Shown here piece by piece: positions 3,387 to 22,649 of a DNA stretch of 64,000 nucleotides (position 1 is the first letter of the stretch; each line of letters starts with the position of its first letter). The stretch spans positions 135,898 to 199,897 of the forward strand of contig DBHK01000025.1 of NCBI GenBank assembly GCA_002295635.1. The letters run 5' to 3'. The position numbers were made by a program, and so were the translations under genes. The notes below the pieces were generated by a model. That model did no database searches, was not told the DNA's origin, and was given only the letters and a program-made list of their open reading frames with translations. Source of the stretch: Alphaproteobacteria bacterium UBA830 (GTDB lineage: Bacteria > Pseudomonadota > Alphaproteobacteria > MPNO01 > UBA830).

Positions 3387-4220
3387 GTGTCATCCACTGA
3401 AGACTTTTTTGTTCGTTTCTGGGGTGTTCGTGGATCAATCGCTTCTCCAGGACCCCAAACGGCCGAGTATGGAGGCAATACATCATGTATTGAGATTCGC
3501 TGCGGGGGGAATCCTCTGATCTTTGATGCAGGAACGGGACTGCGGGATCTCGGGGAAGCCATCGCGGCAGACGGCGTAAAGGATTTAGATCTGTTTCTGA
3601 CACACACACATATAGATCATATCGCTGGATTCCCCTTCTTTCGTCATGCGTTCCAGCGCGGAAACACACTCCGCGTTTGGTCCGGCCACTTGGAGAGTGC
3701 CTCAAGCACCGAAGGGGTCCTGCGCCAGTATATGTCCGAGCCACTATGGCCTGTACCAATAGATATATTCAGCGCGGATGTAAGTTATCATGACTTTCGC
3801 GCCGGTGACACGTTAAACCCTTGCGAGGGCGCAAAGCTACGTACAGCACCATTAAACCACCCCCAGAACGCTACTGGTTATCGGGTCGATTTCGGGGGTA
3901 AAGCAATATGTTACATATCAGATACTGAGCAGCGAGAAGACGGATTGGACCCGAATATCCTCGAGTTGATCGACGGCGCTGATATCGTAATTTACGACTC
4001 TACATATACGGACCGTGAATACCCTAATTATAAAGGCTGGGGCCACTCCACCTGGCAAGAAGGCGTGCGGCTCTGCGATGCGGCCAGTGTAGGCACCCTC
4101 GTGATATTTCATCATATGCCTGAGCGCACCGACGCCGATCTCAACCTAATCGCTGAAGAGGCTGAAAGGACGAGACCGGGTACCATAGTTGCTCGCGAAG
4201 GCATGACTCTCTCACCCTAA
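3387..4220 (+). CDS. MBL-fold metallo-hydrolase
   Basis: The protein has FVRFWGVRGS..., the metal motif THTHIDHIAGF and a later HH motif. I chose the GTG at 3387 because AGGAGG at 3374-3379 lies 7 nt upstream. The track start at 3354 has no such site. Confidence 0.8.
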   Translation: MSSTEDFFVRFWGVRGSIASPGPQTAEYGGNTSCIEIRCGGNPLIFDAGTGLRDLGEAIAADGVKDLDLFLTHTHIDHIAGFPFFRHAFQRGNTLRVWSGHLESASSTEGVLRQYMSEPLWPVPIDIFSADVSYHDFRAGDTLNPCEGAKLRTAPLNHPQNATGYRVDFGGKAICYISDTEQREDGLDPNILELIDGADIVIYDSTYTDREYPNYKGWGHSTWQEGVRLCDAASVGTLVIFHHMPERTDADLNLIAEEAERTRPGTIVAREGMTLSP

Positions 4221-4232
4221 CCCGACTGTCTA

Positions 4233-5081
4233 GTGATAACACCTATTACACGAATAAGATGGCGAGCACTCCGAATGGGGTTACAGACTGTGCTTTGCGG
4301 AAAACGACTTGGTTGGTTTATACCTTACCGGTATGCAGCGTCTGTAACTGAGCCGGACGGATACCCAGCGCTCGAACCTTTCTTCGACGCTGCCCAGCCC
4401 GCCTTTGAGGCTGTCCTTGACAATATCGACGACTATGCTGATGAGTTAGAGGTAATCGGCACGGAACCCTCGCCACAGCCGCGGTGGCGCCAAGGCTGGT
4501 TTCCTCGCCTAGATGCAGCGGCTGCATATACTATGGTGCGTGACCGCCAACCTCGACAAATTCTCGAAATCGGCTCAGGTCATTCTACCCGATTCATGGC
4601 CCGGGCTGTCTCGGATGGTGACCTGTCAACACGTATTATTTCGATAGATCCCGCACCTAGGGCATCTATCAACAAGATTGGCGTCGAACACGTGGCCTCT
4701 ACCCTACACAGGGCAGATTCAAAAATATTCGACTCTCTCGTCGCCGGGGATTTCTTGTTTGTGGACTCCAGTCATATAATGATGCCCGGTACAGATGTTG
4801 ATTATCTCATAAACGATATTTGGCCGCGCCTCCCGCCCGGCGTCATCTTCCATGCTCATGATATATTGCTACCCGACGGATATCCGGCCCACTGGAGGTG
4901 GCGAGGATACAACGAACAATTGGCGATCGCGCCGCTGATCGTCGGAAACGCCGCAAGGCTTCTTTTTGCCAGCCGGTTTGCAATTACTCGAATGAAGGCA
5001 AGGGTGGATCAAGGGGTCATCGGGCGACTAGACCTGTTTGATGGTGCGATCGAGACTAGTCTGTGGCTTGAGAAATCGTAA
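4233..5081 (+). CDS. Class I SAM-dependent methyltransferase-like protein
   Basis: A glycine-rich SAM-binding loop, ILEIGSGHSTRFMA, is followed by an acidic strand (ISIDP). The start is GTG and is uncertain. Confidence 0.6.
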   Translation: MITPITRIRWRALRMGLQTVLCGKRLGWFIPYRYAASVTEPDGYPALEPFFDAAQPAFEAVLDNIDDYADELEVIGTEPSPQPRWRQGWFPRLDAAAAYTMVRDRQPRQILEIGSGHSTRFMARAVSDGDLSTRIISIDPAPRASINKIGVEHVASTLHRADSKIFDSLVAGDFLFVDSSHIMMPGTDVDYLINDIWPRLPPGVIFHAHDILLPDGYPAHWRWRGYNEQLAIAPLIVGNAARLLFASRFAITRMKARVDQGVIGRLDLFDGAIETSLWLEKS

Positions 5082-5176
5082 CTTAATATGGTGTTCTATG
5101 GGGGGCCCGGACTTTAAACTAACTAAATGGTATGACGCCAGTAACCCTCGCCGTACTAAGTACGTCAGTGTAAGCT

Positions 5177-6016
5177 TTGCTCGTGAACCCAATCTTCAAT
5201 TCCGCCACTAATTTCTTTCGCCACCCTGTTGCAAGGCGGAGACCATTTCGTACTCTTGCACGTGTCGCGGTCTGGCAGTTCGTTAGCCGCGCCCAAGATA
5301 GAGTCAAGAAAGATTGGTTGGATGGTACATGCTTAATCGCCGGCAGAGGCATGACCGGATTAACCGGAAACATCTATTACGGCCTGCACGAATTTCACGA
5401 AATGGCGTCCGTTCTCCACATATTGCGAAGCGGCGATGCTTTCGCTGATGTTGGAGCAAATGCAGGGGCGTATACTGTACTAGCCAGCGGCGTCGCGGGT
5501 GCCAACACAGAAGCCATTGAACCGGGTCGGGCTGCGCTTTCGGCCCTTAAAACTAATATCACGATGAACGCCCTCGATAGACAGGTCACAGTTTACGAAT
5601 GTGCCGTCGCGGCGGTCCCCGGCGAGGCTTCTTTTACTGAGGGCGCCGGGACTATGAATCGCTTGACAGAGACGGGAACTCGGCGAGTCCCGGTAATGGC
5701 CCTCGACGGGCTAAGCCGAATTCCAACGATGATAAAGATCGATATCGAGGGCGGCGAAATGGCGGCTTTTCATGGCGCGCAGAAAATTCTTGGTTCGGAT
5801 GCGCTTCTTTGTATAGTTTCGGAAAGCCACGACACCGAAATAAGCGGATTTCTCGCTGATTTTGGCTTTGCCAAGTATCGCTACAATGCACTTACTCGAA
5901 CCTTTCACGAGGATGTGAGGGGCCGAGAAAGTGCCTGGTTCGTGCGCGATATGGTGGGCCTGTTAGAGCGGATTAACGACGCGAGGAAGACCGAAGTTTT
6001 CGGCGTTTGGGTTTAG
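5177..6016 (+). CDS. FkbM-family methyltransferase
   Basis: The pattern FADVGANAGAYTVLAS ... IKIDIEGGEMAAFHGA is typical of FkbM family methyltransferases. The start is TTG and is uncertain. Confidence 0.75.
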   Translation: MLVNPIFNSATNFFRHPVARRRPFRTLARVAVWQFVSRAQDRVKKDWLDGTCLIAGRGMTGLTGNIYYGLHEFHEMASVLHILRSGDAFADVGANAGAYTVLASGVAGANTEAIEPGRAALSALKTNITMNALDRQVTVYECAVAAVPGEASFTEGAGTMNRLTETGTRRVPVMALDGLSRIPTMIKIDIEGGEMAAFHGAQKILGSDALLCIVSESHDTEISGFLADFGFAKYRYNALTRTFHEDVRGRESAWFVRDMVGLLERINDARKTEVFGVWV

Positions 6017-6052: not shown

Positions 6053-7252
6053 TTATTTGTATGGATCCGCCGCATCTCGAAGGCCGTCGCCGAAGAAGTT
6101 AAATGCCAGGATTACGATGATAACTGGTACCACCGGCAACATCAGCCAGGGATAAAGTGCTACGACGTTGATGTTCTGCGCTTCGGCTAGCAGAACCCCC
6201 CAACTGGTGATCGGCGGGCGTAGACCTAGGCCGAGAAACGAAAGGGCTGTCTCTCCTAGGATCATTGCTGGAATAGACAGGGTGGCTGAGGCGATTAAAT
6301 GACTCATAAAGCTCGGCATCATATGTCGCCAGATTATACGGCCGGGCTTGGCGCCCATCAGGCGGGCAGCCGACACAAAATCCTCCTCGCGCACCGCTAA
6401 AAGCTTTGATCTCACTGCTCGGGCAAGCCCGGTCCAGTCCAGAAGGCCGAGGATGATCGTAATGCCAAAATAAATTAGGATAGGGCTCCACGTCACTGGT
6501 AGCGCCGCAGATAGCGCCATCCACAATGGCAGTTCAGGGAAGGACCGTATAACCTCGATTGTCCGCTGGGTAACATTGTCCACCCAACCGCCGTAATAAC
6601 CCGCCAAACCACCGAAGAACATACCCAGCATAAAGCTGATAGCGATGCCGATGATGCCGACAGTGAGCGAGATCCGCGTGCCCATCACGATACGTGAAAA
6701 CATGTCACGTCCTAGCCGGTCGGTCCCTAGCAGAAAAAAGGTGCCATTTTCTGGCGGACAAATCAGGTGAAACCGCATCTCTATCAAGCCCCAAAATTGA
6801 TACTTATCCCCGAGACATAAAAAGCGGATTGGGTTTACCTGATTGGGGTCGTCTTCGTATTCGCGCTTAAGGTTTTCCATGTTGAGCGTATATTTCAGAC
6901 CGTAGGTGAAGGGTGCGCTTATACCCCCGTCATGGAAAAGGTGTAACGACTGGGGAGGGGCGAAGATGTGTTCAGTGTGCCGGGTGTTCATGTTGTAGGG
7001 CGCGATGAATTCACTGATCAGTACCGAGAAATATATCAGCGCAAGAATTGCGCCCGACCAGACCGCTAGCTTGTGTTTTCGAAAGCGGATCCACATCATT
7101 CGCCATTGCGACGCCATATAGATGCGTTCCTGTTCTGGGGTCAGCGCCTCGGCGACGTGGGGGTCGAACGGTTGATCGGATACCCAGTGTTCGAGACGAT
7201 CGCTTCCGGGCGCCCCATCCCCCGATGATCCAGATTGCGATGGGCTGCTCAT
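6053..7252 (-). CDS. ABC transporter permease, Opp/Dpp (DppC/YejE-like) family with N-terminal extension
   Basis: It is a multi-TM protein with the BPD-transport EAA-like region (ARLMGAKPGRIIWRHMMPS) and a C-terminal DGLRDAADPY. Its ATG overlaps the upstream stop (ATGA at 7249-7252). Confidence 0.85.
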   Translation of the reverse strand: MSSPSQSGSSGDGAPGSDRLEHWVSDQPFDPHVAEALTPEQERIYMASQWRMMWIRFRKHKLAVWSGAILALIYFSVLISEFIAPYNMNTRHTEHIFAPPQSLHLFHDGGISAPFTYGLKYTLNMENLKREYEDDPNQVNPIRFLCLGDKYQFWGLIEMRFHLICPPENGTFFLLGTDRLGRDMFSRIVMGTRISLTVGIIGIAISFMLGMFFGGLAGYYGGWVDNVTQRTIEVIRSFPELPLWMALSAALPVTWSPILIYFGITIILGLLDWTGLARAVRSKLLAVREEDFVSAARLMGAKPGRIIWRHMMPSFMSHLIASATLSIPAMILGETALSFLGLGLRPPITSWGVLLAEAQNINVVALYPWLMLPVVPVIIVILAFNFFGDGLRDAADPYK

Positions 7253-8247
7253 CGTTTTGCCCCCCCGCCCAGTCGGATTCGGGGGTCAAGCATGGCGAGC
7301 AGGATGTCTGAAATAAACACGCCGACGACCGTCAATAGAGATAGGAACATTAAAAAAGACCCGGCAAGGTACATATCTTGGCTTTGCAGCGCCCGCAGCA
7401 GCATCGGCCCGGTAGTCGGCAGGGACAGCACCACAGATACAATTACCGCTCCAGAAATGACCTGCGGTAGCAGATTACCAATGTCGGCGATGAACGGATT
7501 TAGAGACATGCGCAGAGGGTACTTTATCAGCAGCTTACGAGGCTTTAGCCCCTTGGCTCGGCCAGTAACCACGTATTGCCGTTGCAGCTCGTCAAGCAGG
7601 TTCGCGCGCAGCCGGCGGATCATTCCGGCCGTCCCCGAAGTACCGATAACGACCACCGGCACCCAAAGATGTTCGAGAATCGATAAGAACTTGGCCCAGG
7701 TCCACGGCTGTCCGATGAACTGATCGTCCATCAGCCCCCCAACCGAGGTGCCAAACCATCGGTTAGCGAGGTACAGAAGGACCAGCGCTAAAAGAAAATT
7801 AGGGGTCGCGAGACCGAGAAAGCCAAGAAAAGAAAGGCTATAATCTCCCCAAGAATACTGGTGCGTGGCCGAATAGACACCGATCGGGAACGAAACTGCC
7901 CATGTAAACAAGATGGTTGTGAACGACACTAGAAAGCTGAGCCACAGACGATCTCCAACAACCTCGGATACAGGCTGATTGTGCTCAAATGAGAAACCGA
8001 AATCGCCCTGCAGCATGCCAAACAGCCACATTAGGTATTGCTGCCACCAGGGTTTGTCGAGGCCATACTGCTCTCGCAAGAAGGCGATCTTAGCCTCATC
8101 GACCGCTTCGCCCTGACTTTGAAGTTCATTAATGTAGCTGCTCAGATAGTCGCCGGGCGGCAGTTGGATAATAACGAAGACTATCAGACTAATCGCGAGT
8201 AGCGTGGGGATCATAATTAGCAAACGATGGCCAAGATATTTGAGCAT
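7249..8247 (-). CDS. ABC transporter permease, Opp/Dpp (DppB/YejB-like) family
   Basis: The N-terminus is MLKYLGHRLLIMIPTLLAISLIVFVII. The protein contains TGRAKGL and ends in DPRIRL, both typical of DppB/OppB permeases. Confidence 0.85.
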   Translation of the reverse strand: MLKYLGHRLLIMIPTLLAISLIVFVIIQLPPGDYLSSYINELQSQGEAVDEAKIAFLREQYGLDKPWWQQYLMWLFGMLQGDFGFSFEHNQPVSEVVGDRLWLSFLVSFTTILFTWAVSFPIGVYSATHQYSWGDYSLSFLGFLGLATPNFLLALVLLYLANRWFGTSVGGLMDDQFIGQPWTWAKFLSILEHLWVPVVVIGTSGTAGMIRRLRANLLDELQRQYVVTGRAKGLKPRKLLIKYPLRMSLNPFIADIGNLLPQVISGAVIVSVVLSLPTTGPMLLRALQSQDMYLAGSFLMFLSLLTVVGVFISDILLAMLDPRIRLGGGAKR

Positions 8248-8259: not shown

Positions 8260-10176
8260 CTACCGCTGGGGCTCGCGCCGTTCGGCGTTATCAAACCAAA
8301 AGGTATCCGGCCGATAAATGCCAAAATGGGCACCTGGATTCCAGTTGTAGATGCCTTTGTCGGGTAAATTTCGGAGGTCTTTATTCACAACTACCGGCTG
8401 CGGCACCGAACCGATTAGACCAATCGAATAAACCTGATCGGCATTGATTTCCAGCATGCGCTGCCAAATACCCTGCCGCTCGCGGCGGCTGCGAGCATAG
8501 GCCCACGCCCTATTCAGCTTAAGCAGTTCCAGTGCGAAGGGGTCAGACGGTCGTTCGCCAGCGCGGGACTGAGTTTGGAAATACTGGCCCCATTTGGGCC
8601 ATTGAAGTTGCAGCTGGTCGGTAGGCGCGAATTCGGCCGGGATGGTGTCCGCATTTGGGATGCCGAATTCGTGGCCAGACCAGATTGACACCAGAGTTTC
8701 TCCTGCGAAGATCCGGTTACGGAACACCTCGCGTTGCGACGGACGCGTAAACAGTTTGATGCCCGCCGCCAGCCATGAATCATGAATGAGTTCCAGAACG
8801 TCTGTTTGTTCTGTATCTTCGCCCGCGGTTTCGACGATAATTTCCATCGGACGACCATCAGGCAACAGCCGGACGCCGCGTGAATCTCGCTTTAATAGGC
8901 CGAGTTCGTCCAGTAGCGAGTTAGCACTCACCAAGTCGAACTGAGCCCACGCATCGCGGTAGGCTTTTTTGTGAAGAGGGCTCGAGGGCAGCACGGTATT
9001 CTGCCCCTCGATCGCTAGACCGTAATATATAACTTGGTTAATTTCATGGCGGTTAATTGCGAGTGATAAAGCGCGCCGGAACTTCACGTCCTGCATTAGG
9101 TTACGCCAAACGTCGTCTTTCACATTCAAATTGGGGAATAGCGCTAGATGCGAGCCCTTTGCTGTCTGCCACAGACGAACTTTGAAATTTTCGCGCTTCT
9201 CGGCTTCCTTAAGGAACGTGTAGTTATTGAACGCTATACCGCGTGCTTGAAAATCTGATTCCCCCGCACCCGTTTTAAGCGGAATTACGCCGGCCGCGGC
9301 GATGGACATGGCAATCCGGTCAGTATACGGCAACTGGCGACCGTTTTGATCAACGCGATGATAAAAAGGATTGCGCTCAAAAATAAAGCGCTGCGCCGGC
9401 GGTTTTGTAAGTAGGAGCCAAGGCTGGAGTGTCGGTAGGTCCGGATTATCGTTTTTGTACTGGTTATCCCGCCGGTTATGAAGGGCTGCCCAGTTCCGAC
9501 GCCCCGATTTCTTCACCTTAGTGCGCAGTGTATTTGCTTCGGCGTAATCTGCGTGAAACTGCTTAAGATAATGTGACGGCCGATAGATATAGAGTGGCGT
9601 AGCAGATGCCAGCGCCGGCAAAAAATGAGGGTTTGGGAGACTCCATGAAAAACGCACAGTGTGCCTATCAATGACTTCAAACTTTGCGGCCTCGCCCGAA
9701 ACTACCATCTGTTTTGGTGCCCCGAGTGGCGATAGCTTTTTGTGGTTGGCGATATCCTCCCACCAATAACGGAAATCTTCAGATGTAAAGAGTGTTCCGT
9801 CTGACCAGCGATGGCCCTTACGAAGGCGTAGTGTAAATATTCGGCCCTGTTTGACGTCGACTCCGGCGAGGATATCCGGCTGCAGCGCAAACTGCGTGTC
9901 GTAGGTCATCAAACGCGCGTAACCGTATACAACGATGATCCGCGTATCCTTCGAACGACCAAAAACGACGCGCATGGTGCCGCCGTGTCGACCCGGATTT
10001 TCTAGCTGGACGATGCGCGGCTCCTGCGGCAGGCGCGCGGTGATGGGCGGTAGTTTGCCAATCGCAATATCGTTTTTAAACCAAGGTGTTTCTAAAGGTT
10101 TTGCTGTTTGCGCGACGGCTGCACCAAAAACAAAAGTGCCGGCGATCAAGACGGTGGATCGTATTATACTCTTCAT
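8260..10176 (-). CDS. ABC transporter substrate-binding protein, family 5 (peptide/oligosaccharide/opine type)
   Basis: It has a signal peptide ([25 protein letters not shown]). At 638 aa its size and composition fit YejA/OppA-like binding proteins. Its ATG overlaps the stop of the ATPase gene (10173-10176). Confidence 0.8.
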   Translation of the reverse strand: MKSIIRSTVLIAGTFVFGAAVAQTAKPLETPWFKNDIAIGKLPPITARLPQEPRIVQLENPGRHGGTMRVVFGRSKDTRIIVVYGYARLMTYDTQFALQPDILAGVDVKQGRIFTLRLRKGHRWSDGTLFTSEDFRYWWEDIANHKKLSPLGAPKQMVVSGEAAKFEVIDRHTVRFSWSLPNPHFLPALASATPLYIYRPSHYLKQFHADYAEANTLRTKVKKSGRRNWAALHNRRDNQYKNDNPDLPTLQPWLLLTKPPAQRFIFERNPFYHRVDQNGRQLPYTDRIAMSIAAAGVIPLKTGAGESDFQARGIAFNNYTFLKEAEKRENFKVRLWQTAKGSHLALFPNLNVKDDVWRNLMQDVKFRRALSLAINRHEINQVIYYGLAIEGQNTVLPSSPLHKKAYRDAWAQFDLVSANSLLDELGLLKRDSRGVRLLPDGRPMEIIVETAGEDTEQTDVLELIHDSWLAAGIKLFTRPSQREVFRNRIFAGETLVSIWSGHEFGIPNADTIPAEFAPTDQLQLQWPKWGQYFQTQSRAGERPSDPFALELLKLNRAWAYARSRRERQGIWQRMLEINADQVYSIGLIGSVPQPVVVNKDLRNLPDKGIYNWNPGAHFGIYRPDTFWFDNAERREPQR

Positions 10177-12053: not shown

Positions 12054-12556
12054 TGGGAATCGCTACTAGGTGTAAATAACTCTTTCGTTTCACCCAGAAG
12101 CTCAAGATTCCCCAAGGTGGTCGGCGAAAGATCCAGCCCTCGGTCACTAGCAGCTTTCGACGCGCATTTAACAATATCGGCGAACCCACTGAGAGTCGAT
12201 TCAATCCGAATTTTAACGCCGCCCCCCTTAAGAACAAGTTGCAGCCAACCACGCCTCCCGTCACGACGGGTCGAAAAGTGCCGGAGGCGCATCTCCTCTA
12301 TATCCTGCCAACGCATGGAACGTGAAAAAGGCCCGGAAACCATTATTCCCGTAATACTAAGCTCTATGACACTAACATGTCGAATGATCACGTTCCCGGT
12401 ATAGACGATGAACAAAGACACCAAAAATATCATTGTCCAGTATACAGGGCCTATTGTTTGAAGGAAAAGAACTGGCCCCACCGTAACCGCTAGACCAAAA
12501 GCCGCACGGATATAGTCGGAAGCAATTGTATGTATTGTATGGCGGTATTCGGTCAC
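12050..12556 (-). CDS. Small membrane protein, two TM helices plus a C-terminal PH-like soluble domain (hypothetical)
   Basis: Two hydrophobic helices are present (AAFGLAVTVGPVLFLQTI, YWTMIFLVSLFIVYTG). The basic beta-rich tail resembles bacterial PH-like domains. I chose the GTG at 12556, which overlaps the upstream stop (GTGA). Its own stop overlaps the ATPase ATG (ATGA at 12050-12053). Confidence 0.5.
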   Translation of the reverse strand: MTEYRHTIHTIASDYIRAAFGLAVTVGPVLFLQTIGPVYWTMIFLVSLFIVYTGNVIIRHVSVIELSITGIMVSGPFSRSMRWQDIEEMRLRHFSTRRDGRRGWLQLVLKGGGVKIRIESTLSGFADIVKCASKAASDRGLDLSPTTLGNLELLGETKELFTPSSDSQ

Positions 12557-14477: not shown

Positions 14478-15075
14478 TATTCCCTCCATTCTCTGTCAGG
14501 GGAACGTTCAGCGCTTCGATCGCGAAACCACCATCCGAATCAGCTTCGAATATGTGAACACTGGCCCAATTCATTTTTTCCGGCGGTTTGCCAACCATAC
14601 TCCATCCGGTCGCTAATGACAGCGCCGCCCGTATGATTCCCTGGTGGCAGACAGCGCCGGTCGGTTGTCCTGTAGCCGCTATCTCGCGTGCCCAAGCGGC
14701 CACGCGGTCGCGTACGTCTCGCGGGCTTTCGCCCCCGTGCGGCCGCAGATCAAGCCCCTTTGCGGCTCGGATAGAAATCTCATCGCCGTATATTTCTTCC
14801 AGCTCCGAACGGGTGTGGCCTTCCCATGCGCCCCAGTCCATTTCAATAATCGCGGGGTCAAGCTGAGTGATTTCAAGCGAGAGTATTTCGGCCGTCTGCT
14901 GCGCTCGGCTAAGGGGGCTAGAAACCCACCGAAACACCCGATAGGCGTCGGGAACGCGCCATTTCGCGACTTCCTCGCACCCTTCCGCCGACAGTGGGCG
15001 GTCAGTGCGGCCCTGTAGCCGATGCTCCCCGTTCCAGTCGGTTGGTCCGTGGCGGATCAAAGCAATCTCCGTCAT
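14467..15075 (-). CDS. Histidine phosphatase (phosphoglycerate-mutase-like) family protein
   Basis: The catalytic RHG motif is at the N-terminus (IALIRHGPTDWN). A second histidine region is present (AVCHQGIIRA). The ATG overlaps the upstream stop (ATGA at 15072-15075). Confidence 0.85.
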   Translation of the reverse strand: MTEIALIRHGPTDWNGEHRLQGRTDRPLSAEGCEEVAKWRVPDAYRVFRWVSSPLSRAQQTAEILSLEITQLDPAIIEMDWGAWEGHTRSELEEIYGDEISIRAAKGLDLRPHGGESPRDVRDRVAAWAREIAATGQPTGAVCHQGIIRAALSLATGWSMVGKPPEKMNWASVHIFEADSDGGFAIEALNVPLTENGGNNGT

Positions 15076-16223
15076 ACGGCCCCCAACTCCACAGCGCCAC
15101 GCAAAATACGGTCGAGCGTGACCGCCGCGGATGTTATATCGTTTTCTGAGGCCGTGCGAGCAAGTGCCTTCTTTGAGAATACGGACCGCCTATTCGGCGC
15201 AACGAGCAATTCCGCAGTGGCGGTGGCAAATGCACCAACATCCCCGACAAGACACAAAAGCCCAGTTTCGCCGTGTCTGACAAAATCTGGAACCCCGCCG
15301 GTTTCACCTGCGACCACTGGTAGTCCCGTGGCTTGGGCTTCCAACATTGCCATCCCGTATGCCTCGTTCACAGCAGGCCAGACCATTAAATCCGCCGCTG
15401 CGTATAACGCAGGCAGTTCCTCAGGCATGACCCCACCCGCGAACCGGATGCGATTACTGGCCAAATCTGCAAACGCGGCTTCCACCGGTAAACGAGCGGG
15501 GCCGTCGCCTACGATCAGAAGCGCCCATTCACTATTCTGTAGACGACCTAGTGCCTCGGCCAGCACCCGGTAACTGGCGAGCTTGTCTCCGTCCCGCATC
15601 ATTCCAACCGCCAACAGTATCGGGGTGTTACCGTCCACCTGAAAGCGCCCGACGATATCTGCTCGATGTTTTATCCGGTTTTTTGCGGCAAGCGCGAAAG
15701 GCGTCGTGTCGGTGAACGGCGGAAGAGTGTGATATCTGCCGGGATCTTCTAGCAACGGTTGCACGCAGGCGGCGTCTCGCTGCGACAGGCCGATAATTCC
15801 TAGCCCGTGCTTGATGGCCGATTCCGCCGCTCTGTACCCAATGTCCCAGGGCCCACCCGCCTGTTTAGGCGCGTGGGAAACCTCGGCGAGAAAATAGGGT
15901 ATTTCGAGGGCCTCGCTGACAGCCGGCCCGATCCAGTCCGGCGCTTTGTGGTATACGTGATATGTGAACCAGGCATCAGGCCGCCGCTCGGAATTTCCCC
16001 TCTGCCAGTTCTCGATCAGAACCCTTGCTTCCTCTTGTGCCCCCTGGGCAAGCGCCCTCTGGGTTGCTGGATCCCCGATACCGTCGCGGCTAACGAACTC
16101 GCTGGCAATGTCCACCTTATGCCCGCACCCCAGAGCGGCAATCAGGTTGCGAGCCATTTGGCGATCGCCCGACGGCACCGGCGACGATACAGGTTTCATT
16201 GGGGCGTAGAAAGCGATCCTCAT
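15072..16223 (-). CDS. Glycosyltransferase family 4 (group 1)
   Basis: The C-terminal GT-B region NEAYGMAMLEAQATGLPVVAGETGGVPDFV carries the E-x7-E type motif of GT4 enzymes. Confidence 0.85.
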   Translation of the reverse strand: MRIAFYAPMKPVSSPVPSGDRQMARNLIAALGCGHKVDIASEFVSRDGIGDPATQRALAQGAQEEARVLIENWQRGNSERRPDAWFTYHVYHKAPDWIGPAVSEALEIPYFLAEVSHAPKQAGGPWDIGYRAAESAIKHGLGIIGLSQRDAACVQPLLEDPGRYHTLPPFTDTTPFALAAKNRIKHRADIVGRFQVDGNTPILLAVGMMRDGDKLASYRVLAEALGRLQNSEWALLIVGDGPARLPVEAAFADLASNRIRFAGGVMPEELPALYAAADLMVWPAVNEAYGMAMLEAQATGLPVVAGETGGVPDFVRHGETGLLCLVGDVGAFATATAELLVAPNRRSVFSKKALARTASENDITSAAVTLDRILRGAVELGAV

Positions 16224-16234: not shown

Positions 16235-17488
16235 TCAGGCCGCATCGCGGTCGGATAAAGTGACCGCTGCACCTAGCTTGGCTGCAAGCCGGTCGATCCC
16301 CGCCCTGAATGAAAATGCGCTTCGTACGCGCGCCTCTCCAGCGCGGCCTAGAAACAGTCTGCGTTCGGAATTTACAGCGAGCGTCGCGATTGCGTTTCTG
16401 AGTGCATCAGGGTTATCCGCCGGGACCAGCACCCCAGTTTCGCCGTCGACGATCAACTCCGGAATGGCTGAAACATCGGTAGCAACACAGACTAAGCCCT
16501 GGCTCTGAGCTTCCATCAGTACATTTGGAAGACCGTCGCGGTCACCATCGTTACCGACCCGGCTTGCCAAAACGAACAAGTCGGCCTTTCGGTATAGATT
16601 GCGCACTTCACCTTGCGGCAATGCGCCGAACCAGACCACTCTGTCCGCGATACCAAGCCGTTCGGCCCGCACTTTTAAGCGGTCACACAATTCGCCGCCG
16701 CCGACATGCCACAGCCGCCAATTGATATGTGAAGGCAATCCCGCCACCGCATCGAGGAGAATGTCGTGACCCTTTTTCTCCACCGCTCGGCCCACACACA
16801 AGAAGTACAATGGGTCGTCAGGATCAGACCCATCGCGCAAGGCCCTTCTGTTCGGCGCGGGCGGAAATCGATCAGCGTCCAGCCCATGATAGACCAACTC
16901 CACTTTTCCTTCCCCGTTGTCCAGCGCCGCCAGATGGTCTCGAGCATAGCCAGAACAGGTAACCAGCCAGCTAGCGGCGGCCAATTTTTCTCGCTTCTCC
17001 CATTCCGGCGTGGTCCAGATATCCTTTGCGTGGGCGGATACAGTCCAGGGCCTTCCAGTCAGCGCAGCTGCGTAGCGTGCGACGGATGCGGGCGTGTGTA
17101 GAAAATGAGCATGGATATGTTCTATATCTGGCGCCAGTTCATGTGCCAGCACGAGGGCCTGCCCGAAGCGACGGATTCGGTTAGTTGTCCTGTCGCGGTA
17201 TAAATCTCGTAGCCATGCACGCCGAACTTTCCGGTAGGCTGACAATTTCCGCATTTTGCGCCAAGCAACCCACACCCGTCGTGGTTCTTGGTAAAGATAT
17301 TCCGGAAGATATCGTACGGGGGCCTCAATTTCTTCGTGTACCGGATGTTTTTGGCTGTCCGTCGGGTGTCGTAGAGATACGATCTCGACATCGAGCCCTC
17401 GTTCTTCAAGGCCCCGAATCTCTTGGGCTATAAAGGTTTCCGACAAACGTGGGTACCCTTTGACTACTATGGCGATGCGGCCAGACAT
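16235..17488 (-). CDS. Glycosyltransferase family 4 (group 1, WcaL-like)
   Basis: The motifs are IAIVVKGYPRLSETFI at the N-terminus and DGLPNVLMEAQSQGLVCVATDVSAIPELI later in the protein. Confidence 0.85.
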   Translation of the reverse strand: MSGRIAIVVKGYPRLSETFIAQEIRGLEERGLDVEIVSLRHPTDSQKHPVHEEIEAPVRYLPEYLYQEPRRVWVAWRKMRKLSAYRKVRRAWLRDLYRDRTTNRIRRFGQALVLAHELAPDIEHIHAHFLHTPASVARYAAALTGRPWTVSAHAKDIWTTPEWEKREKLAAASWLVTCSGYARDHLAALDNGEGKVELVYHGLDADRFPPAPNRRALRDGSDPDDPLYFLCVGRAVEKKGHDILLDAVAGLPSHINWRLWHVGGGELCDRLKVRAERLGIADRVVWFGALPQGEVRNLYRKADLFVLASRVGNDGDRDGLPNVLMEAQSQGLVCVATDVSAIPELIVDGETGVLVPADNPDALRNAIATLAVNSERRLFLGRAGEARVRSAFSFRAGIDRLAAKLGAAVTLSDRDAA

Positions 17489-17502: not shown

Positions 17503-18723
17503 TCAGACTCGGCCTGCAATGGCAGCGATTGGTTTTGCGCGGCGCCCAGTAAGGCGGCGTGCCAGCCGGTTAACGTTTGGCAGTCCGTCGAGTAGCCCCG
17601 GTACGACGATATCGGATGGACGGTTCTGTTGTGGCAGGTGGCGCAGAGCGGTCGCCATGTCCCTAGCATTGCGGATACCGTCATCCTCCAGCATACGGAC
17701 AAGGCCCAATTCTTGGGCACGATCCGCCCTGATGAACTGCTCCATACGAGGTACCGTTCGCGGGATGACCAGAGCCGGTTTGTCGAAGGAAAGGATCTCG
17801 CAAAATGTGTTATAACCCCCCATTGCCACGATGCCCGCCGCGGCTTGGATCAATGGTTCGATATTGGCCTCGAACGTTATCGCTTCAACATTTTTAAGTT
17901 CTGCGACTCGACGGCTGAACTCGAGTTGTTTTTCTTGTTGCATGAACGGTCCGAACACCATCAATGCCGGATAGGGTGGCGTGGCCTCTGACTCGTAAGC
18001 GCGGAGCACCCAATCGACCATTGCTTCCCCGTCTCCACCGCCTCCCGGCGTCACTAACAGGTGAGGCTGGTCGAAAGGAACCGCATGTTCGGCGTTGGGC
18101 GCGCCGCGCGCGGCGTCACGTTCCAGATATCCGGTGTAAACCATTTTGCGCCGGACCTGTTGAGGTAACGTAATCTCCGCAAGGGGGTCACAGATTTGCG
18201 GCAAACCGTAGACCCAAATCTGATCGTAAAGGTGTTCAAGCGCCGGAATGACATTCTTACGCTCCCATTCAGGCGCTAACAACGATGGCTCATCCATTAC
18301 GTCGCGCAACCCCAGAACCAGAGGTGTACCGCGTTCACACAGCATTTCTAATGTTTCCGCAACCTCCCCCCGCAGGCCCAGAGGCTCCTTGTCGACAATG
18401 AAGATATTTGGATCGAATACTTCAGCTGTGTGCTTGATGATTGATGCGCGTAGCGCAACGGTCTGTTCAATATCGAGATCTAGGCTGTGAGACGTGTAAT
18501 CGCCGTTACGCAGCTTTATTACACCGGGCACCCTTACGAAATCGACCCTTCGCTTGAAATCGAAATTCCCTATGATTGGCGATCCAGAAAGAATAATTAC
18601 GGACATGTTTTGGTTCTGGTCCACGAGAGCATGAGCGATAGCACGACAACGCCGCAGATGCCCGAGTCCGAAGCTATCATGGCTGTAAATGAGTGCTCGC
18701 TGCGGCTGTTTATTTGTCATCAT
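17503..18723 (-). CDS. Glycosyltransferase, GT-B fold (GT28 C-terminal / COG4671-like), paralog 2
   Basis: ALIYSHDSFGLGHLRRC and a C-terminal MGGYNT motif parallel the 13317-14477 product. I chose the ATG at 18723. The track start at 18777 is a TTG with no obvious RBS, so the start remains uncertain. Confidence 0.75.
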   Translation of the reverse strand: MMTNKQPQRALIYSHDSFGLGHLRRCRAIAHALVDQNQNMSVIILSGSPIIGNFDFKRRVDFVRVPGVIKLRNGDYTSHSLDLDIEQTVALRASIIKHTAEVFDPNIFIVDKEPLGLRGEVAETLEMLCERGTPLVLGLRDVMDEPSLLAPEWERKNVIPALEHLYDQIWVYGLPQICDPLAEITLPQQVRRKMVYTGYLERDAARGAPNAEHAVPFDQPHLLVTPGGGGDGEAMVDWVLRAYESEATPPYPALMVFGPFMQQEKQLEFSRRVAELKNVEAITFEANIEPLIQAAAGIVAMGGYNTFCEILSFDKPALVIPRTVPRMEQFIRADRAQELGLVRMLEDDGIRNARDMATALRHLPQQNRPSDIVVPGLLDGLPNVNRLARRLTGRRAKPIAAIAGRV

Positions 18724-18831
18724 GCATGAACCAATGGGTTTTGCGCAGAATATCGCATGCCTTGGACATCTCCCCAAATATTATATGTCTGGAGGGATCT
18801 TTTTCTGATATTAACACATTTTACTATGAAT

Positions 18832-18870
18832 TAGATAAAAGCTGATATTTAGCACGATATAGATAAAAGC
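18832..18870. repeat. Two copies of the 11-bp direct repeat TAGATAAAAGC, 28 bp apart, in the divergent AT-rich intergenic region
   Basis: I read exact copies at 18832-18842 and 18860-18870. They lie between the GT operon start (18723/18777) and the ABC-exporter start (18957). Confidence 0.7.
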
Positions 18871-18956
18871 CGGCATGGCTATTCAATAGGCGGCACGTTG
18901 CGGTAATATGGGGTACTGTCGCAAACATACCGACAGCTTATACGTTCGTCGCATCG

Positions 18957-21620
18957 GTGGGGATCCAAGTGGAAACAAGCATTTACCGTTACGTCATGAA
19001 GTATTCGCTGCGTCAGCAGGTCATTCTGACGCTTATGGCGATTGCGTCGTTCCCCTTCTTATATGCCTTTTACGAATTACCAAAGATGATCGTTAACGGT
19101 GCAATTCAAGCCAAAAGTGTCAGCTTTCCAACTACGATGGTGGGTGTTGAGTTAGACCAAATTAACTATCTCTGGGTCCTGTGTGCCGGTTTTCTCATTC
19201 TTGTGATTGTTAATCAGGCGTTTAAATACGCGATCAATCTCTACGCAGGGATAACGGGCGAACGTATGTTGCGCCGGCTACGTTTCCAGCTATACGGTAG
19301 AATTCTGAGGTTTCCGCTACCACAGTTTCGAAAAACATCATCGTCCGAAATGGTGACTATGATCACCGCTGAGGTCGAGCCGTTGGGCGGGTTTGTCGGC
19401 GATGCTTTTAAGTTACCGGTATTCCAAGGCGGCTACCTACTAGTCATTCTCGCGTTTTTGTTTGTTCAGAACTGGTTTATGGCGCTTGCCGCGATCGCGC
19501 TATACCCACTCCAGGGCTACCTGATCCCGAAGCTGCAAAGCCGTGTAAGAGTGTTTAGCAAGCAAAGGGTTCGTTTGGTGCGTCAGCTGTCCGACCGTAT
19601 CGGCGAAACAGCAAATGGTGTTGTTGAAATTCATTCAAATAACAGCGCTCGGCGCGAGTTGGCTGAATTTTCTGGCCGCCTAGGGGCCTTATACGATGTC
19701 CGCCTCCAGATTTATATTTGGAAGTTTATAATCAAATTCCTGAATAATTCGATAAATCAACTCGGCCCATTTTGCTTCTACGCGATTGGTGGCTGGCTAG
19801 CAATAAAGGGCGAACTCGAGATCGGCACACTTATGGCAGCTATCGCCGCCCATAAGGACCTCGCAGCACCCTGGAAAGAACTTCTGAATTTTTATCAGCG
19901 TCAAGCAGATGCAAAAATTAAGTACGAGCAGGTGATGGAACAGTTCCAGCCGCCAGGAATGATGGAAGAAAGTCGCCAGGTAGGTGAACCAGAGTCGGTG
20001 GAGCCGCTGCGTGGCGACGTTGTAGCCTCTGGCCTGTCCTTGGGGGATGACACGGGCGCCACGCTGGTCGATAGTGCCTCTTTCACCTTTGATACCTCCG
20101 AACATGTCGCAATGGTTGGTGGTGGCGGTTCCGGGAAGGAAGAAACGGCCCAGCTTTTAGCAGCTCTTCTGGAGCCAACTGGAGGCGGCCTACAGATCGG
20201 CCCAGAAAAGCTTGGGGATATGCCGGAGGCAGTCACAGGCAGAAGGCTCTCTTACGTTGGCGCATCGGCTTATCTATTCTCGAATACTATTCGCGATAAC
20301 CTGCTCTACGGCGTCCAACATCTACCTCTAATAGAACCCAATTACACCGAAGACGAACGCCGAATTCATGAAAGTCGGTTGTCTGAGGCTACTGCTTCGG
20401 GCAATTCCACCGACGACCTCAATGCCAACTGGATAGACTATAACGGTGCTGGCGTACCGGATGATGACGCTCTTCTCAAACGCATCTTCGATGTTCTGGA
20501 AATGGTCAAGTTGGATCAAGATATCTATACCCTAGGACTTCGCAGCGTCGTTGATCCGACGGCCCAGTCAGGCTTAGCAGATAAATTCTTGGAGGCCCGA
20601 AACGAATTTCGTAGTCGCGTTACTGACCCGGATATTGCCGCGCTGGTCGAGGGGTTTGACTCGGAGCGTTACAATCAAAATGCTACACTTGGAGAGAACC
20701 TGCTGTTCGGCACCCCGGTAGGGCCCTCTTTTGATATGGATCGCCTTGCTGAAAACGAATATGTAATTTCTGTCCTCGACGGCCAAGGCCTGACGAGTCG
20801 AATGCTCGAGGCCGGCCAGCAGATCGCCTCTACTATGGCTGAAGTATTCGCGGGGCTGTCCGCTGGGCATCCGTTCTTCGAACAATTCAGTTTCATATCA
20901 TCCGAGGATCTTCCGGAACTTCAGTCGATCCTAACGCGGATCAGCCGTGATGGGATAGATGCGATCCGACCAGAAGAACGAACTATGCTTCTATCTTTGC
21001 CATTCAAGATTTCCCCTTCGCGCCATCGTTTAGGGGTGATCGACGATGCCCTCCAAGAGCAAATATTGAAAGCCCGTCACGCCTTTTCAGAAAATCTCCC
21101 GGACGAACTGGAGGGGGGGATAGAATTTTTTGATAAGGACACGTACAACTCGGCCGGGACACTACAAGATAATATCTTGTTCGGGAAACTTGCTTACGGT
21201 CAAGCGGGCGGCGCCGATCGGGTCGGTGAAATTGTATCCGCGATTATCAGCGACCTTGGCTTGCGTAACATCGTGATGGAAGTTGGCTTAGATTTCCATG
21301 CCGGTATAGGCGGAGGACGGCTTTCCAGCGCCCAACGACAGAAGATCGGTATTGCTCGGGCAGTTCTTAAACGGCCTGATGTACTTATCTTAAATGAAGC
21401 CACTGGAAGCCTAGATGGGGCAACACAGACGGCGCTACTCTCCAACCTGCGTGACGAAATGAGTGGTCGTGGAGTGGTATGGGCACTAAACCGTGCAACT
21501 ATGGCAGAGAGTTTTGACAAGATCTTAGTAATGAAGTCCGGACGTGTCACTGAACAAGGTAGCTGGGATGAACTCAACAGGGAGGGTTCGGATTTTTACG
21601 AACTTCTGCAGTCTGAATGA
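18957..21620 (+). CDS. Atypical ABC exporter-like protein: type-I exporter TMD fused to an expanded, motif-degenerate NBD
   Basis: The N-terminal ~330 aa has the TM-helix pattern of ABC_membrane domains. The C-terminal part carries GGGGSGKEE, LSSAQRQKIGIARA and VLILNEAT. The start is uncertain: GTG at 18957 or 18969, or ATG at 18996. Confidence 0.8.
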   Translation: MGIQVETSIYRYVMKYSLRQQVILTLMAIASFPFLYAFYELPKMIVNGAIQAKSVSFPTTMVGVELDQINYLWVLCAGFLILVIVNQAFKYAINLYAGITGERMLRRLRFQLYGRILRFPLPQFRKTSSSEMVTMITAEVEPLGGFVGDAFKLPVFQGGYLLVILAFLFVQNWFMALAAIALYPLQGYLIPKLQSRVRVFSKQRVRLVRQLSDRIGETANGVVEIHSNNSARRELAEFSGRLGALYDVRLQIYIWKFIIKFLNNSINQLGPFCFYAIGGWLAIKGELEIGTLMAAIAAHKDLAAPWKELLNFYQRQADAKIKYEQVMEQFQPPGMMEESRQVGEPESVEPLRGDVVASGLSLGDDTGATLVDSASFTFDTSEHVAMVGGGGSGKEETAQLLAALLEPTGGGLQIGPEKLGDMPEAVTGRRLSYVGASAYLFSNTIRDNLLYGVQHLPLIEPNYTEDERRIHESRLSEATASGNSTDDLNANWIDYNGAGVPDDDALLKRIFDVLEMVKLDQDIYTLGLRSVVDPTAQSGLADKFLEARNEFRSRVTDPDIAALVEGFDSERYNQNATLGENLLFGTPVGPSFDMDRLAENEYVISVLDGQGLTSRMLEAGQQIASTMAEVFAGLSAGHPFFEQFSFISSEDLPELQSILTRISRDGIDAIRPEERTMLLSLPFKISPSRHRLGVIDDALQEQILKARHAFSENLPDELEGGIEFFDKDTYNSAGTLQDNILFGKLAYGQAGGADRVGEIVSAIISDLGLRNIVMEVGLDFHAGIGGGRLSSAQRQKIGIARAVLKRPDVLILNEATGSLDGATQTALLSNLRDEMSGRGVVWALNRATMAESFDKILVMKSGRVTEQGSWDELNREGSDFYELLQSE

Positions 21621-21687
21621 CACGAGTTGATATGAAAAAACCGCAGGACCAATTCATGATTTTCGCGACATCGGCAAGGAGAAACCA

Positions 21688-22134
21688 GTGAGCCTGAATG
21701 AAGAGGTAGAAGCCCTGCGCAGGGTGCCACTGTTTGCCAAGATCGAACCGTCAAAATTGAAATTACTCGCATTTACCAGCGAACGCTTGACCTTCGCTGC
21801 AGGCCGCGAATTGTTTCACGAGGGCGATGCAGGCGATGCCGCTTATATCATTCTCGAAGGAAAGGCTGATATCGTCATCGATACCCCAAACGGGGAGTTA
21901 GCCGTCGCAAAGGTCGGTAAAAATGATCTGATTGGCGAAATTGCCATACTGATCGACGTTCCTCGAACAGCCACAATCAGAGCGGAAACAGAACTCACCG
22001 CTCTTGTAATTACCAAGGATTTATTCTTCCAAATGATTAACGAGTTCCCGGACATGGCGGTAGAGATTATGCGGGAACTAGCCCATCGCCTAGAAGCTAC
22101 GACGTCGCAGCTACGCGAAGTCAGCAACGGGTAA
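21688..22134 (+). CDS. Stand-alone cyclic nucleotide-binding (CAP/CNB) domain protein
   Basis: The motifs are PLFAKIEPSKLKLLA, FHEGDAGDAAYIILEG and the phosphate-binding cassette GEIAILIDVPRTATIRA. AAGGAG lies 7 nt upstream of the GTG start. No effector domain is present. Confidence 0.85.
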   Translation: MSLNEEVEALRRVPLFAKIEPSKLKLLAFTSERLTFAAGRELFHEGDAGDAAYIILEGKADIVIDTPNGELAVAKVGKNDLIGEIAILIDVPRTATIRAETELTALVITKDLFFQMINEFPDMAVEIMRELAHRLEATTSQLREVSNG

Positions 22135-22157
22135 AAATCCAGGAACCCGACAAGTAT

Positions 22158-22649
22158 ATGAGCAGACTGGACTCTTTTATCCGGCGTGTTTCGGCGCAAC
22201 GAGATTGCCTTAACTTGGCTAAGGAGCTGATAGAGGATACGCCGGGGCCAGTTCTCGAACTGGGTCTCGGAAACGGCCGCACCTACGATCATTTACGTGA
22301 ACTGTTCCCCGATCGGGCCATTTTCGTTTTCGACCGCCGTATCGCTGCTCATCCGGAGTGTATTCCTAATGAAAAATATATGATCCTTGGTGACATTGTA
22401 GAAACACTAGCATCCGCCACAGATCGCATCGGTGGTAAAGCCGCCCTCGCCCACTGCGATATCGGTACCGGTGTTAAGGAAAGCAATGCTAAGCTGATCG
22501 CCGAGATCGCGCCGCTAATAGACGCGCTGATGATTCGGGGCGGGATCGTGTGTAGCGACCAAGAATACTCCGTCGAAAACTGGTCCCCTGAGCCCCTGCC
22601 CGCCGGCATACGGTCGGGTCGCTATTTCATCAATCGTGTAGGCTATTAA
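22158..22649 (+). CDS. Small class I SAM-methyltransferase-fold protein (hypothetical)
   Basis: The glycine-rich loop VLELGLGNGRTYDHL is followed by the acidic strand IFVFDRR. The protein is 163 aa and the gene sits 23 nt after the CNB gene. Confidence 0.55.
   Translation: MSRLDSFIRRVSAQRDCLNLAKELIEDTPGPVLELGLGNGRTYDHLRELFPDRAIFVFDRRIAAHPECIPNEKYMILGDIVETLASATDRIGGKAALAHCDIGTGVKESNAKLIAEIAPLIDALMIRGGIVCSDQEYSVENWSPEPLPAGIRSGRYFINRVGY

Follow-up and report, generated by a model that had tools for sequence, protein, structure and literature searches.

A 64,000-nucleotide stretch of contig DBHK01000025.1 from Alphaproteobacteria bacterium UBA830 (positions 135,898 to 199,897 of the forward strand), hereafter termed the window, carries a locus that combines genes for glycosyltransferases (GTs), modifying enzymes and an ATP-binding cassette (ABC) importer with genes for an aberrant homologue of ABC exporters and a stand-alone cyclic nucleotide-binding (CNB) protein. 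Judged by protein sequence comparison, the locus is the orthologue of the smb21252-smb21271 cluster on pSymB of Sinorhizobium meliloti. The presumed product of that cluster was provisionally named phazolicin-protecting polysaccharide (PPP) in 2023 and was described by the authors as yet uncharacterised (PMC10128002).

Gene content of the locus

Genes were called from a listing of open reading frames (ORFs) combined with Pfam and NCBIfam profile searches of the window proteins. A sequence-only reading of this DNA had proposed two divergent transcription units around an AT-rich region (18724-18956), and this arrangement is borne out by the tight packing of the genes and by a GC content of the spacer of 41.6% versus a window mean of 52.7%. 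The minus-strand unit comprises 11 genes and extends from position 18723 down to 6053 with intergenic distances of -23 to +14 nt, including several 4-nt overlaps of start and stop codons. Profile matches agree with the earlier assignment of four GTs, a histidine phosphatase, a small membrane protein and an Opp-type importer to this unit. It starts with GT28b (17503-18723; GT28-like, COG4671; PF04101, 3e-7), which is followed by GT4b (16235-17488; PF00534, 3.7e-35), GT4a (15072-16223; PF13692, 5e-29, and PF00534), a branch 1 histidine phosphatase with conserved RHG motif (14467-15075; PF00300, 9e-40), GT28a (13317-14489; GT28-like, COG4671; PF04101, 6e-11), a 255-aa cytoplasmic deacetylase (12553-13320, ATG start at 13320) and a 168-aa membrane protein (12050-12556, GTG start at 12556). 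The importer genes complete the unit. They encode a fused double ATPase (10173-12053; two PF00005 domains plus oligo_HPY), a periplasmic family-5 substrate-binding protein (SBP) of 638 aa (8260-10176; SBP_bac_5, PF00496, 3.7e-49), an OppB-type permease (7249-8247; PF00528 and PF19300) and an OppC-type permease (6053-7252; PF00528 and PF12911). The binding protein is the only locus protein with a signal peptide (Sec).

Across the spacer, the plus-strand unit encodes the 887-aa type IV (MsbA-fold) ABC exporter homologue (18957-21620; PF00664 and a split PF00005) and, as previously recognised, the stand-alone CNB protein of 148 aa (21688-22134; PF00027, 1.3e-20) followed by a small S-adenosylmethionine (SAM)-dependent methyltransferase of 163 aa (22158-22649; PF12692, 2.1e-58). 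Three further plus-strand genes lie past the importer and are convergent with it. Their products are a metallo-beta-lactamase (MBL)-fold metallohydrolase with an intact HxHxDH motif (3354-4220; PF12706, 1.8e-21), a class I SAM methyltransferase (4233-5081; Methyltransf_24, PF13578, 3.9e-13) and an FkbM-family methyltransferase (5177-6016; PF05050/TIGR01444, 3e-15). No Pfam domain of Wzx, Wzy, Wza, Wzc or a polyprenyl-phosphate priming transferase is present in any ORF between 1 and 35 kb of the window, in keeping with the earlier view that this is not a standard Wzx/Wzy or Wza/Wzc locus. A type V ABC-2 permease with a separate nucleotide-binding domain (NBD), the arrangement of Wzm/Wzt and KpsMT, was likewise not found; only one locus protein is exporter-like, and this is a fused half-transporter of type IV (PF00664).

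GT28a and GT28b share 23% identity (E 2e-13), as expected of distantly related paralogues. The NCBIfam models that GT4a resembles best are of the BshA, MshA and sucrose-phosphate synthase types, none of which reaches its cutoff, and GT4b is EpsE- and WcaL-like. The 255-aa protein, taken for a NodB-like deacetylase in the sequence-only reading, lacks a Pfam match; Pfam models fail on it, except for a weak DUF2334 match. Its AlphaFold model, built from a 43-sequence alignment, has a mean predicted local distance difference test (pLDDT) score of 96.4, and the top Protein Data Bank (PDB) matches of this model in Foldseek are all CE4 enzymes (best 3rxz, E 2.7e-9, TM 0.67). Furthermore, the CE4-like motifs DD, HxxxH, DxxDW and LxHH (also read as WWRDDD, HGxxH and THH) are invariant across the family. 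On the basis of the modelled fold, the protein is a CE4/NodB-fold deacetylase. Sequence searches of the PDB yielded armadillo-repeat matches for the deacetylase, which were rejected as compositional, and were uninformative for GT28b. The small membrane protein, the GTG start codon of which overlaps the stop codon of the deacetylase gene, has a hydrophobic N-terminal stretch compatible with two transmembrane helices. Its family shares invariant W, T-R and W residues, and weak bPH_6 and DUF6585 matches in some members make a PH-like cytoplasmic domain possible.

The importer had been described as an Opp/Dpp-type system, and its architecture with a family-5 SBP, two permeases and OppD/F-type ATPases is of this kind. 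The motifs of the ATPase are fully canonical and GsiA/YejF-like (GsiA 4e-184, YejF 2e-173). The substrate, on the other hand, is probably an oligosaccharide rather than a peptide, as suggested by the affinities of the binding protein. Its nearest solved structures are 5ipw (2e-80), SPH1118 (2e-69) and an alpha-galactoside binder (1e-27), whereas peptide-binder structures match at about 1e-6 or weaker. SPH1118 of Sphingomonas sp. A1 is a pectin-binding protein that functions in chemotaxis and assimilation (PMC9314435, PMC7055323).

A GC content as low as that of the 233-bp spacer is reached by only 1.1% of 233-bp windows. The spacer contains an exact 11-bp direct repeat, TAGATAAAAGC, with two copies 28 bp apart (18832-18842 and 18860-18870), which may constitute a regulator binding site. 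The repeat was not found in the intergenic regions of relatives, and no motif common to the window spacer and the intergenic regions of distant relatives was detected. In several distant relatives (L004, L005, L015, L020 and L021) a motif like GACTATGGCA(C/T)AG is located just upstream of the first GT gene, and GTTTACC precedes the ABC gene; neither of these motifs occurs in the window. A scan for promoters and terminators returned fewer promoter-like sites than were found in shuffled sequence.

Conservation and relationship to the S. meliloti PPP cluster

Window proteins were mapped on S. meliloti pSymB by tblastn, and gene names were taken from the transposon sequencing (Tn-seq) table of Travin et al. 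(2023; PMC10128002). Full-length matches were obtained for GT4a (SMb21252, 41% identity), the CE4 deacetylase (SMb21253, 38%), GT28b (SMb21264, redA, COG4671, 46%), GT4b (SMb21265, redB, 54%), GT28a (SMb21266, COG4671, 42%) and the ABC protein (SMb21269, 36%), with redA, redB and SMb21266 in the same order as their orthologues in the window. The S. meliloti cluster also contains orthologues of the CNB protein (58%), of the MBL protein (45%), whose gene there adjoins the deacetylase gene, and of the four importer proteins (51-65%; OppC-type 64%, OppB-type 65%). Chromids of Rhizobiaceae carry a core of importer, GT28b, GT4b, GT28a, ABC and CNB genes on one strand. The two clusters differ in that the S. 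meliloti genes all point in one direction, whereas those of the window form divergent operons. The window lacks the UDP-sugar dehydrogenase, PF14099 polysaccharide lyase, cyclase, DUF3095 and MscS-like genes of S. meliloti and adds the histidine phosphatase, the membrane protein with two predicted transmembrane helices and the PF12692 and PF13578 methyltransferases. In S. meliloti 2011 (locus L086), the MscS-like channel gene is situated directly upstream of smb21252 (8290-10506), and the DUF3095 gene (13485-14696) lies beside the MBL gene; in R. etli and L127, too, the cluster is found together with a DUF3095 gene.

According to the Tn-seq table, disruption of nine genes between smb21252 and smb21271 strongly lowers fitness in the presence of phazolicin (PMC10128002). 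Six of them are orthologues of window genes (smb21252/53/64/65/66/69), and an insertion in smb21252 or smb21265 raises the sensitivity to phazolicin 8-fold (PMC10128002). Seven of the nine genes are induced under predation by Myxococcus (PMC10315480), and the phazolicin paper also describes these genes as being implicated in symbiosis (PMC10128002). A preprint from 2026 still lists the region as an uncharacterised exopolysaccharide cluster. The remaining three required genes encode a UDP-sugar dehydrogenase (SMb21256), a PF14099 polysaccharide lyase (SMb21259) and an FkbM-type methyltransferase (SMb21271). The latter and the FkbM protein of the window both belong to PF05050, but comparison of the two detected no orthology (E 0.15), and the window protein is an analogue at the family level only. 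Orthologues of the PF14099 lyase occur only in S. meliloti loci among the loci examined. In S. meliloti, the lyase and UDP-sugar dehydrogenase genes are positioned directly upstream of the importer genes, which fits uptake of acidic oligosaccharide fragments.

The sequence-only reading had considered the system as a candidate for an undescribed one, for which it could name no characterised counterpart. This stands only in part, since the cluster in S. meliloti already bears a name and has known phenotypes; it remains correct in so far as that system is still uncharacterised both chemically and mechanistically. Of the refutation named beforehand, a match to a characterised polysaccharide locus, only half therefore applies. 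In the published PPP work, attention was not drawn to the CNB partner, to the importer or to the dead motifs of the ABC protein (PMC10128002). What the present comparisons add are a putatively catalytically dead ABC family with an NBD insert of its own, its fusions to domains binding cyclic nucleoside monophosphates (cNMPs), a candidate cyclase/MBL module and an importer probably of the oligosaccharide type. No literature was found on COG4671, on redA/redB or on a combination of cyclase, GTs and CNB protein. Two other S. meliloti clusters were considered. The msbA2 operon (SMb21188-SMb21191), a presumed system for synthesis and export of an uncharacterised polysaccharide (PMC3687685, PMC12239276), resembles the locus in having GTs beside an MsbA-like ABC exporter and no Wzx/Wzy, but it contains an acyltransferase, lacks CNB protein, importer and COG4671 GTs and resides about 100 kb away on pSymB (938 kb versus 822-846 kb), which rules out that it is the same locus. 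The Clr/cAMP-regulated cluster nodP2-smb21248 is also different, being of the Wzx/ExoP type.

Beyond the rhizobia, homologues of the 887-aa ABC protein that keep its unusual length are encoded in at least 579 species genomes (at least 599 pattern matches, 579 confirmed by tblastn). Carriers include Sneathiella, Azospirillum, Inquilinus, Thalassobaculum, Oceanibacterium, Nisaea, Defluviicoccus, Stellaceae, Geminicoccaceae and many marine and soil metagenome-assembled genomes (MAGs). Every window protein was compared by tblastn with the best 80 loci, and the following counts refer to the 53 loci (species) with complete flanks. The CNB gene directly follows the ABC gene in all 53, with a median gap of 37 nt. 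GT4b and GT28a are each present in 51 loci, GT28b in 50, GT4a in 49, the importer ATPase in 48, the CE4 deacetylase in 47 and the small membrane protein and the histidine phosphatase in 43 each, the phosphatase always beside GT4a. The PF12692 methyltransferase follows the CNB gene in 32 loci; in other genomes it is found directly upstream of the MBL gene or of a gene for an ABC::CNB fusion. The three core GTs occur together in 50 of the 53 species, and the overall arrangement is repeated in about 50, which is more than expected by chance. A lack of co-localisation in other genomes had been set beforehand as a refutation of the sequence-only reading. This refutation clearly fails, and the shared gene neighbourhood supports one conserved functional cluster. 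In Azospirillum the gene order is rearranged and the genes are still linked. Two loci, one in a MAG labelled Gammaproteobacteria (L037) and one in a Ferrovibrionaceae MAG (L051), have ABC and CNB genes without GTs within 10 kb upstream; L037 carries an MBL gene directly upstream of the ABC gene, and the PF12692 methyltransferase is also present in L051.

Since the 10-kb flanks ended short of the genes past the importer, conservation of the MBL and PF13578 genes was taken from a second scan centred on MBL. Orthologues of the MBL protein with at least 45% identity are almost always accompanied by the PF13578 methyltransferase as the next gene (about 30 metagenome loci with an MBL orthologue, and also L059 and L063). 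In the metagenome loci, this pair then adjoins the importer, the PF12692 methyltransferase, the CNB or the ABC gene in several arrangements. Because of this linkage both genes belong to the cluster. All three genes previously reported beyond the importer are present, but none of the 166 related loci contains an orthologue of the FkbM gene. The earlier suggestion that the product is deacetylated and methylated gains from these results: both functions are real parts of the cluster, as judged from the modelled CE4 fold for the former and from the synteny of the PF13578 and PF12692 methyltransferases for the latter.

The locus is flanked by housekeeping genes (LolA, FtsK, LeuRS, MnmE/MnmG) and is therefore chromosomal. 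mnmG (gidA) and mnmE (trmE) lie side by side at 54959-58265, the cumulative GC skew has its minimum at about 62-63 kb, and the window may be close to the chromosomal replication origin. An EEP-family gene (25170-25964), the product of which has the N-terminus MRIVSWNINS and is presumably exonuclease III-like, is syntenic with the cluster in 30 of the 53 loci. In the window it is split off from the PF12692 methyltransferase gene by a gene (22779-25112) for a heavy-metal ATPase of the P-type, bearing YHS and HMBD domains at its N-terminus, which is found in the same place in L001 and L008, while most relatives have the EEP gene directly next. The EEP gene was taken as a neighbour and not as part of the cluster; its synteny probably reflects conserved neighbourhood rather than function. 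Genes for the small and large subunits of aconitase X followed by three short-chain dehydrogenase genes (31562-35453) form an unrelated catabolic operon.

The ABC exporter homologue and the associated CNB protein

The 887-aa protein consists of a type IV exporter transmembrane domain (TMD) and an NBD that is split by an insert of about 280 aa (residues 455-735, window positions 20319-21161). All its catalytic motifs had been reported as substituted. This applies to the Walker A Ser/Thr (Glu, GKE), the Q-loop Gln (Ala), the LSGGQ signature (LSSAQ), the Walker B Asp (Asn) and the H-loop His (Asn), but not to Walker A Lys394 and the Glu following Walker B, which are kept. A census of 83 homologues revealed that the Walker A Lys position is occupied by Lys in 51, Arg in 21 and Ala in 5 of them, while the next residue is Asp or Glu in 71 and the canonical Ser or Thr in 4. 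The Q-loop Gln is kept in 18 homologues, the Walker B Asp in 4 (Asn in 45, Ser in 20), the catalytic Glu in 51 and the H-loop His in 44. In the Rhizobiaceae orthologues Lys, Asp, Glu and His are all gone together (GSGAEA; FNR/FNQ), and SMb21269 is nevertheless listed in the Tn-seq table as required for the phazolicin phenotype. As other positions, namely QRQK following the signature and the Asp of the D-loop, do not vary among family members, the NBD is under selection, though not for a normal hydrolytic cycle. Thus, the ABC protein probably cannot run a normal cycle of ATP hydrolysis. SMb21269 as given in the Tn-seq table spans 842345-844435 (about 697 aa), while an intact ORF of 916 aa homologous to the 887-aa protein is present on pSymB of strain 2011 (L086, 29689-32439); about 200 residues at the N-terminus, in the TMD, seem to be lacking in the older annotation.

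The NBD insert is mostly helical and is predicted with high confidence (pLDDT about 85-95). A search with the insert only against 1.84 billion representative proteins returned 885 matches (608 at E <= 1e-10). These are ABC proteins with lengths of about 870-930 or 1020-1090 aa, and the insert resides at about residues 450-730 in every full-length one. Besides the copy at about 438-452, the Q-loop-proximal motif [YF]-x4-T-[LV]-x-[DE]-N-[LI]-L-[FY]-G recurs twice in the insert, at about 572-585 and 730-743; copies 2 and 3 align with an hhalign probability of 91%, and copy 1 is weaker. The extra motif copies suggest that the helical subdomain has been partially duplicated in tandem. Foldseek searches with the ABC model retrieved generic type IV exporters only, none of them with the insert.

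Members of the CNB family have retained the phosphate-binding cassette in canonical form (GEIAIL...PRTAT). The window protein consists of PF00027 alone, without a helix-turn-helix, and models of CRP and FtrB match it only through their N-terminal halves. With 148 aa and no DNA-binding domain, it was ruled out as a CRP/FNR-type transcription factor. In all eight long members of the ABC family that were tested (989-1206 aa, including that of Ruegeria sp. TM1040), PF00027 is fused to the C-terminus of the ABC protein. One of these proteins (P0320, 1206 aa) has an ABC - cNMP-binding - GGDEF architecture, and its domain composition links the family to c-di-GMP synthesis. In Azospirillum oryzae, a gene for a fused ABC::CNB protein stands directly beside the importer ATPase gene in one co-directional operon with the small methyltransferase, importer, GT, histidine phosphatase and deacetylase genes. 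Because of these Rosetta-stone fusions and the adjacency in 53 of 53 loci, a physical and functional partnership of ABC and CNB protein is very likely, and the fusions strongly support control of the ABC protein by a cNMP. A link between the two proteins had already been surmised from the sequence of the window, and it is strengthened by the recurrence of a class III nucleotide cyclase in the cluster. Such a cyclase is encoded in the clusters of Rhizobium and Sinorhizobium, orthologues are found directly after the CNB gene in L058, L070 and L072 and beside the PF13578 methyltransferase gene in L109, and none is present in the window. The MBL protein exhibits weak NCBIfam resemblance to RNase Z and to a phosphodiesterase degrading cyclic nucleotides, and is a candidate phosphodiesterase, possibly acting as a cNMP sink.

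Conserved association of a cNMP-binding domain with an ABC protein of this type could also mean that ABC::CNB is a cNMP-controlled membrane regulator or sensor, which tunes the importer and/or recruits the GTs to the membrane while the glycan export machinery is encoded elsewhere. SUR and CFTR, in which the ABC fold does not serve pumping, would be comparable. The loss of catalytic residues across the family would fit such a function, and so would the GGDEF output domain of one family member and the neighbourhood of the fusion and importer ATPase genes in Azospirillum oryzae. In addition, the Ruegeria sp. TM1040 megaplasmid (L085, 15330-18299) carries a fused ABC::CNB gene with an importer paralogue 7 kb upstream (SBP 48% identical) and no GTs, and in Ruegeria sp. 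AD91A (L168) the fused gene is solitary, without an importer paralogue. On the other hand, SMb21269 mutants have the phenotype of GT mutants in the Tn-seq table while importer mutants were not recovered there, the TMD is complete, of the exporter type and well conserved, numerous residues being invariant, and the locus offers no alternative exporter. We regard a purely regulatory ABC::CNB protein as unlikely.

Proposed synthesis, transport and control of the product

The explanation that we consider best, and to which we incline only slightly more than we doubt it, is that of a PPP-type envelope-glycan locus, in a marine alphaproteobacterium of Rhodospirillales-like affinity, with an ABC protein set by a cNMP and an importer for re-uptake. 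An oligo- or polysaccharide would be assembled in the cytoplasm by the four soluble GT-B glycosyltransferases. Its primer possibly comes from GT4a together with the histidine phosphatase, to which it is translationally coupled; the two would work on a phosphorylated acceptor as synthase and phosphatase of a glycosyl-X-phosphate. The CE4 enzyme would de-N-acetylate an amino sugar, and two or three SAM methyltransferases would methylate the product. The Nod-factor pathway (NodC, NodB, NodS, NodIJ) follows the same logic, with a cytoplasmic GT, a CE4 deacetylase, a SAM methyltransferase and ABC export, but it employs a GT of family GT2, a type V exporter and an acyltransferase and is devoid of importer and CNB protein.

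Synthase/phosphatase pairs are well known from the formation of sucrose, trehalose, glucosylglycerol and glucosylglycerate, and the importer GgtABCD recaptures leaked glucosylglycerol. The pairing of GT4a with a phosphatase could accordingly point to a small, soluble product, a glycoside or oligosaccharide retained in cytoplasm or periplasm, such as an osmolyte, an osmoregulated periplasmic glucan or a compound resembling the polymethylated polysaccharides of mycobacteria, with regulated release by the ABC protein and recapture by the importer. Several methyltransferases, co-transcription of importer and biosynthetic genes and the MscS-like channel gene next to smb21252 are consistent with a product of this kind. 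However, four GTs and a deacetylase imply a larger product, the Rhizobiaceae clusters are without the phosphatase, and the antibiotic-barrier phenotype is better compatible with an envelope polymer, such that a small soluble product appears improbable.

Under the PPP-type explanation, the product would cross the inner membrane through, or helped by, the 887-aa MsbA-fold protein, the activity of which would be set by cAMP or cGMP on the CNB partner and not by a normal ATP-hydrolysis cycle. The class III cyclase, present in many relatives and absent from the window, would be the likely source of the nucleotide and the MBL hydrolase its likely sink. The co-transcribed Opp-family importer would retrieve fragments or surplus product from the periplasm, with turnover or recapture as its purpose. 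The NdvB/NdvA (ChvB/ChvA) system for cyclic beta-1,2-glucan resembles this scheme in cytoplasmic synthesis of a periplasmic glycan, in the use of a type IV ABC exporter and in its occurrence in alphaproteobacteria. It differs from the locus in the canonical NBD of NdvA, in relying on one giant enzyme for synthesis and in lacking importer, CNB protein, deacetylase and methyltransferase. A cNMP-binding protein together with an ABC exporter is also met in the context of TIGR03896, a model that matches the CNB protein with 1.2e-14; these bacteriocin-type exporters, however, contain a peptidase, are catalytically competent and export peptides.

A more far-reaching form of the PPP-type explanation is a family of ABC exporters that, without ATP hydrolysis, serve as cNMP-gated conduits or signal transducers for a cytoplasmic glycan and form, together with the ATP-driven importer, a loop of export and re-uptake that sets the amount of envelope glycan. 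We offer this form only tentatively and consider it doubtful.

The best family matches of the ABC protein are to MsbA, and models of PglK and of glucan exporters match as well. The lipid-linked glycan flippases PglK and MsbA share the transporter fold with the 887-aa protein; unlike it, they are ATP-driven, have consensus motifs and lack the insert of about 280 aa in the NBD and a CNB partner. The fold similarity raises the question of whether the product might be a lipid-linked glycan or a glycolipid, anchored to undecaprenyl diphosphate or diacylglycerol, that is put together at the membrane by the MurG-like and GT4 enzymes, flipped by the MsbA/PglK-fold protein via facilitated diffusion and put on lipopolysaccharide or the outer membrane. 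GT28 relatives such as MurG and the monogalactosyldiacylglycerol synthases as well as EpsE/WcaL-like GT4 enzymes use lipid acceptors, and enzymes of these types are encoded in the locus. The known phenotype is that of an envelope barrier (PMC10128002), which would suit a lipid-linked product too. We nevertheless judge such a product to be quite unlikely, as the locus contains no priming transferase, ligase or acyltransferase, an importer with a periplasmic SBP for soluble oligosaccharides is tightly coupled to the cluster, and the pairing of histidine phosphatase and GT4a suggests a soluble phosphorylated acceptor.

Several points weigh against a PPP-type envelope-glycan locus with cNMP-set export. 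It is not obvious what would energise a transporter that does not hydrolyse ATP, and no priming enzyme, polymerase, ligase or outer-membrane export component is encoded in the locus. Two of the nine genes required in S. meliloti, those for the UDP-sugar dehydrogenase and the PF14099 lyase, are without counterparts, as no such domain was found in the ORFs scanned across the window. Conversely, the nine genes of the Tn-seq table include none for importer, CNB protein, MBL protein or cyclase, and these parts are thus dispensable for the sole known phenotype. The best family matches of the MBL protein are of the RNase Z type and below cutoff, so that a cyclic nucleotide is a candidate substrate only. 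The fused ABC::CNB genes of Ruegeria TM1040 and AD91A have no GTs within 14-16 kb, and since ABC::CNB thus occurs without nearby GTs in some Rhodobacterales, the role of the ABC protein may not be glycan export. Finally, the product has never been isolated, and its designation as a polysaccharide is an assumption of the S. meliloti authors too.

The system is not a rhizobial curiosity. It represents a deeply conserved alphaproteobacterial module that extends to at least 579 species, among them Rhodospirillales-like lineages from the sea and from soil, and the S. meliloti orthologues of which have already been tied to protection against a peptide antibiotic and to the response to predation. The analysis yields four testable hypotheses, namely an ATPase-dead exporter, direct control by a cNMP as judged from the domain fusions, a cyclase/phosphodiesterase pair and re-uptake of oligosaccharides. 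If true, an ABC protein operated by a cNMP would introduce a new principle into the regulation of both envelope glycans and ABC proteins, and would represent both a new use of the ABC fold and a new output of bacterial cAMP/cGMP signalling.

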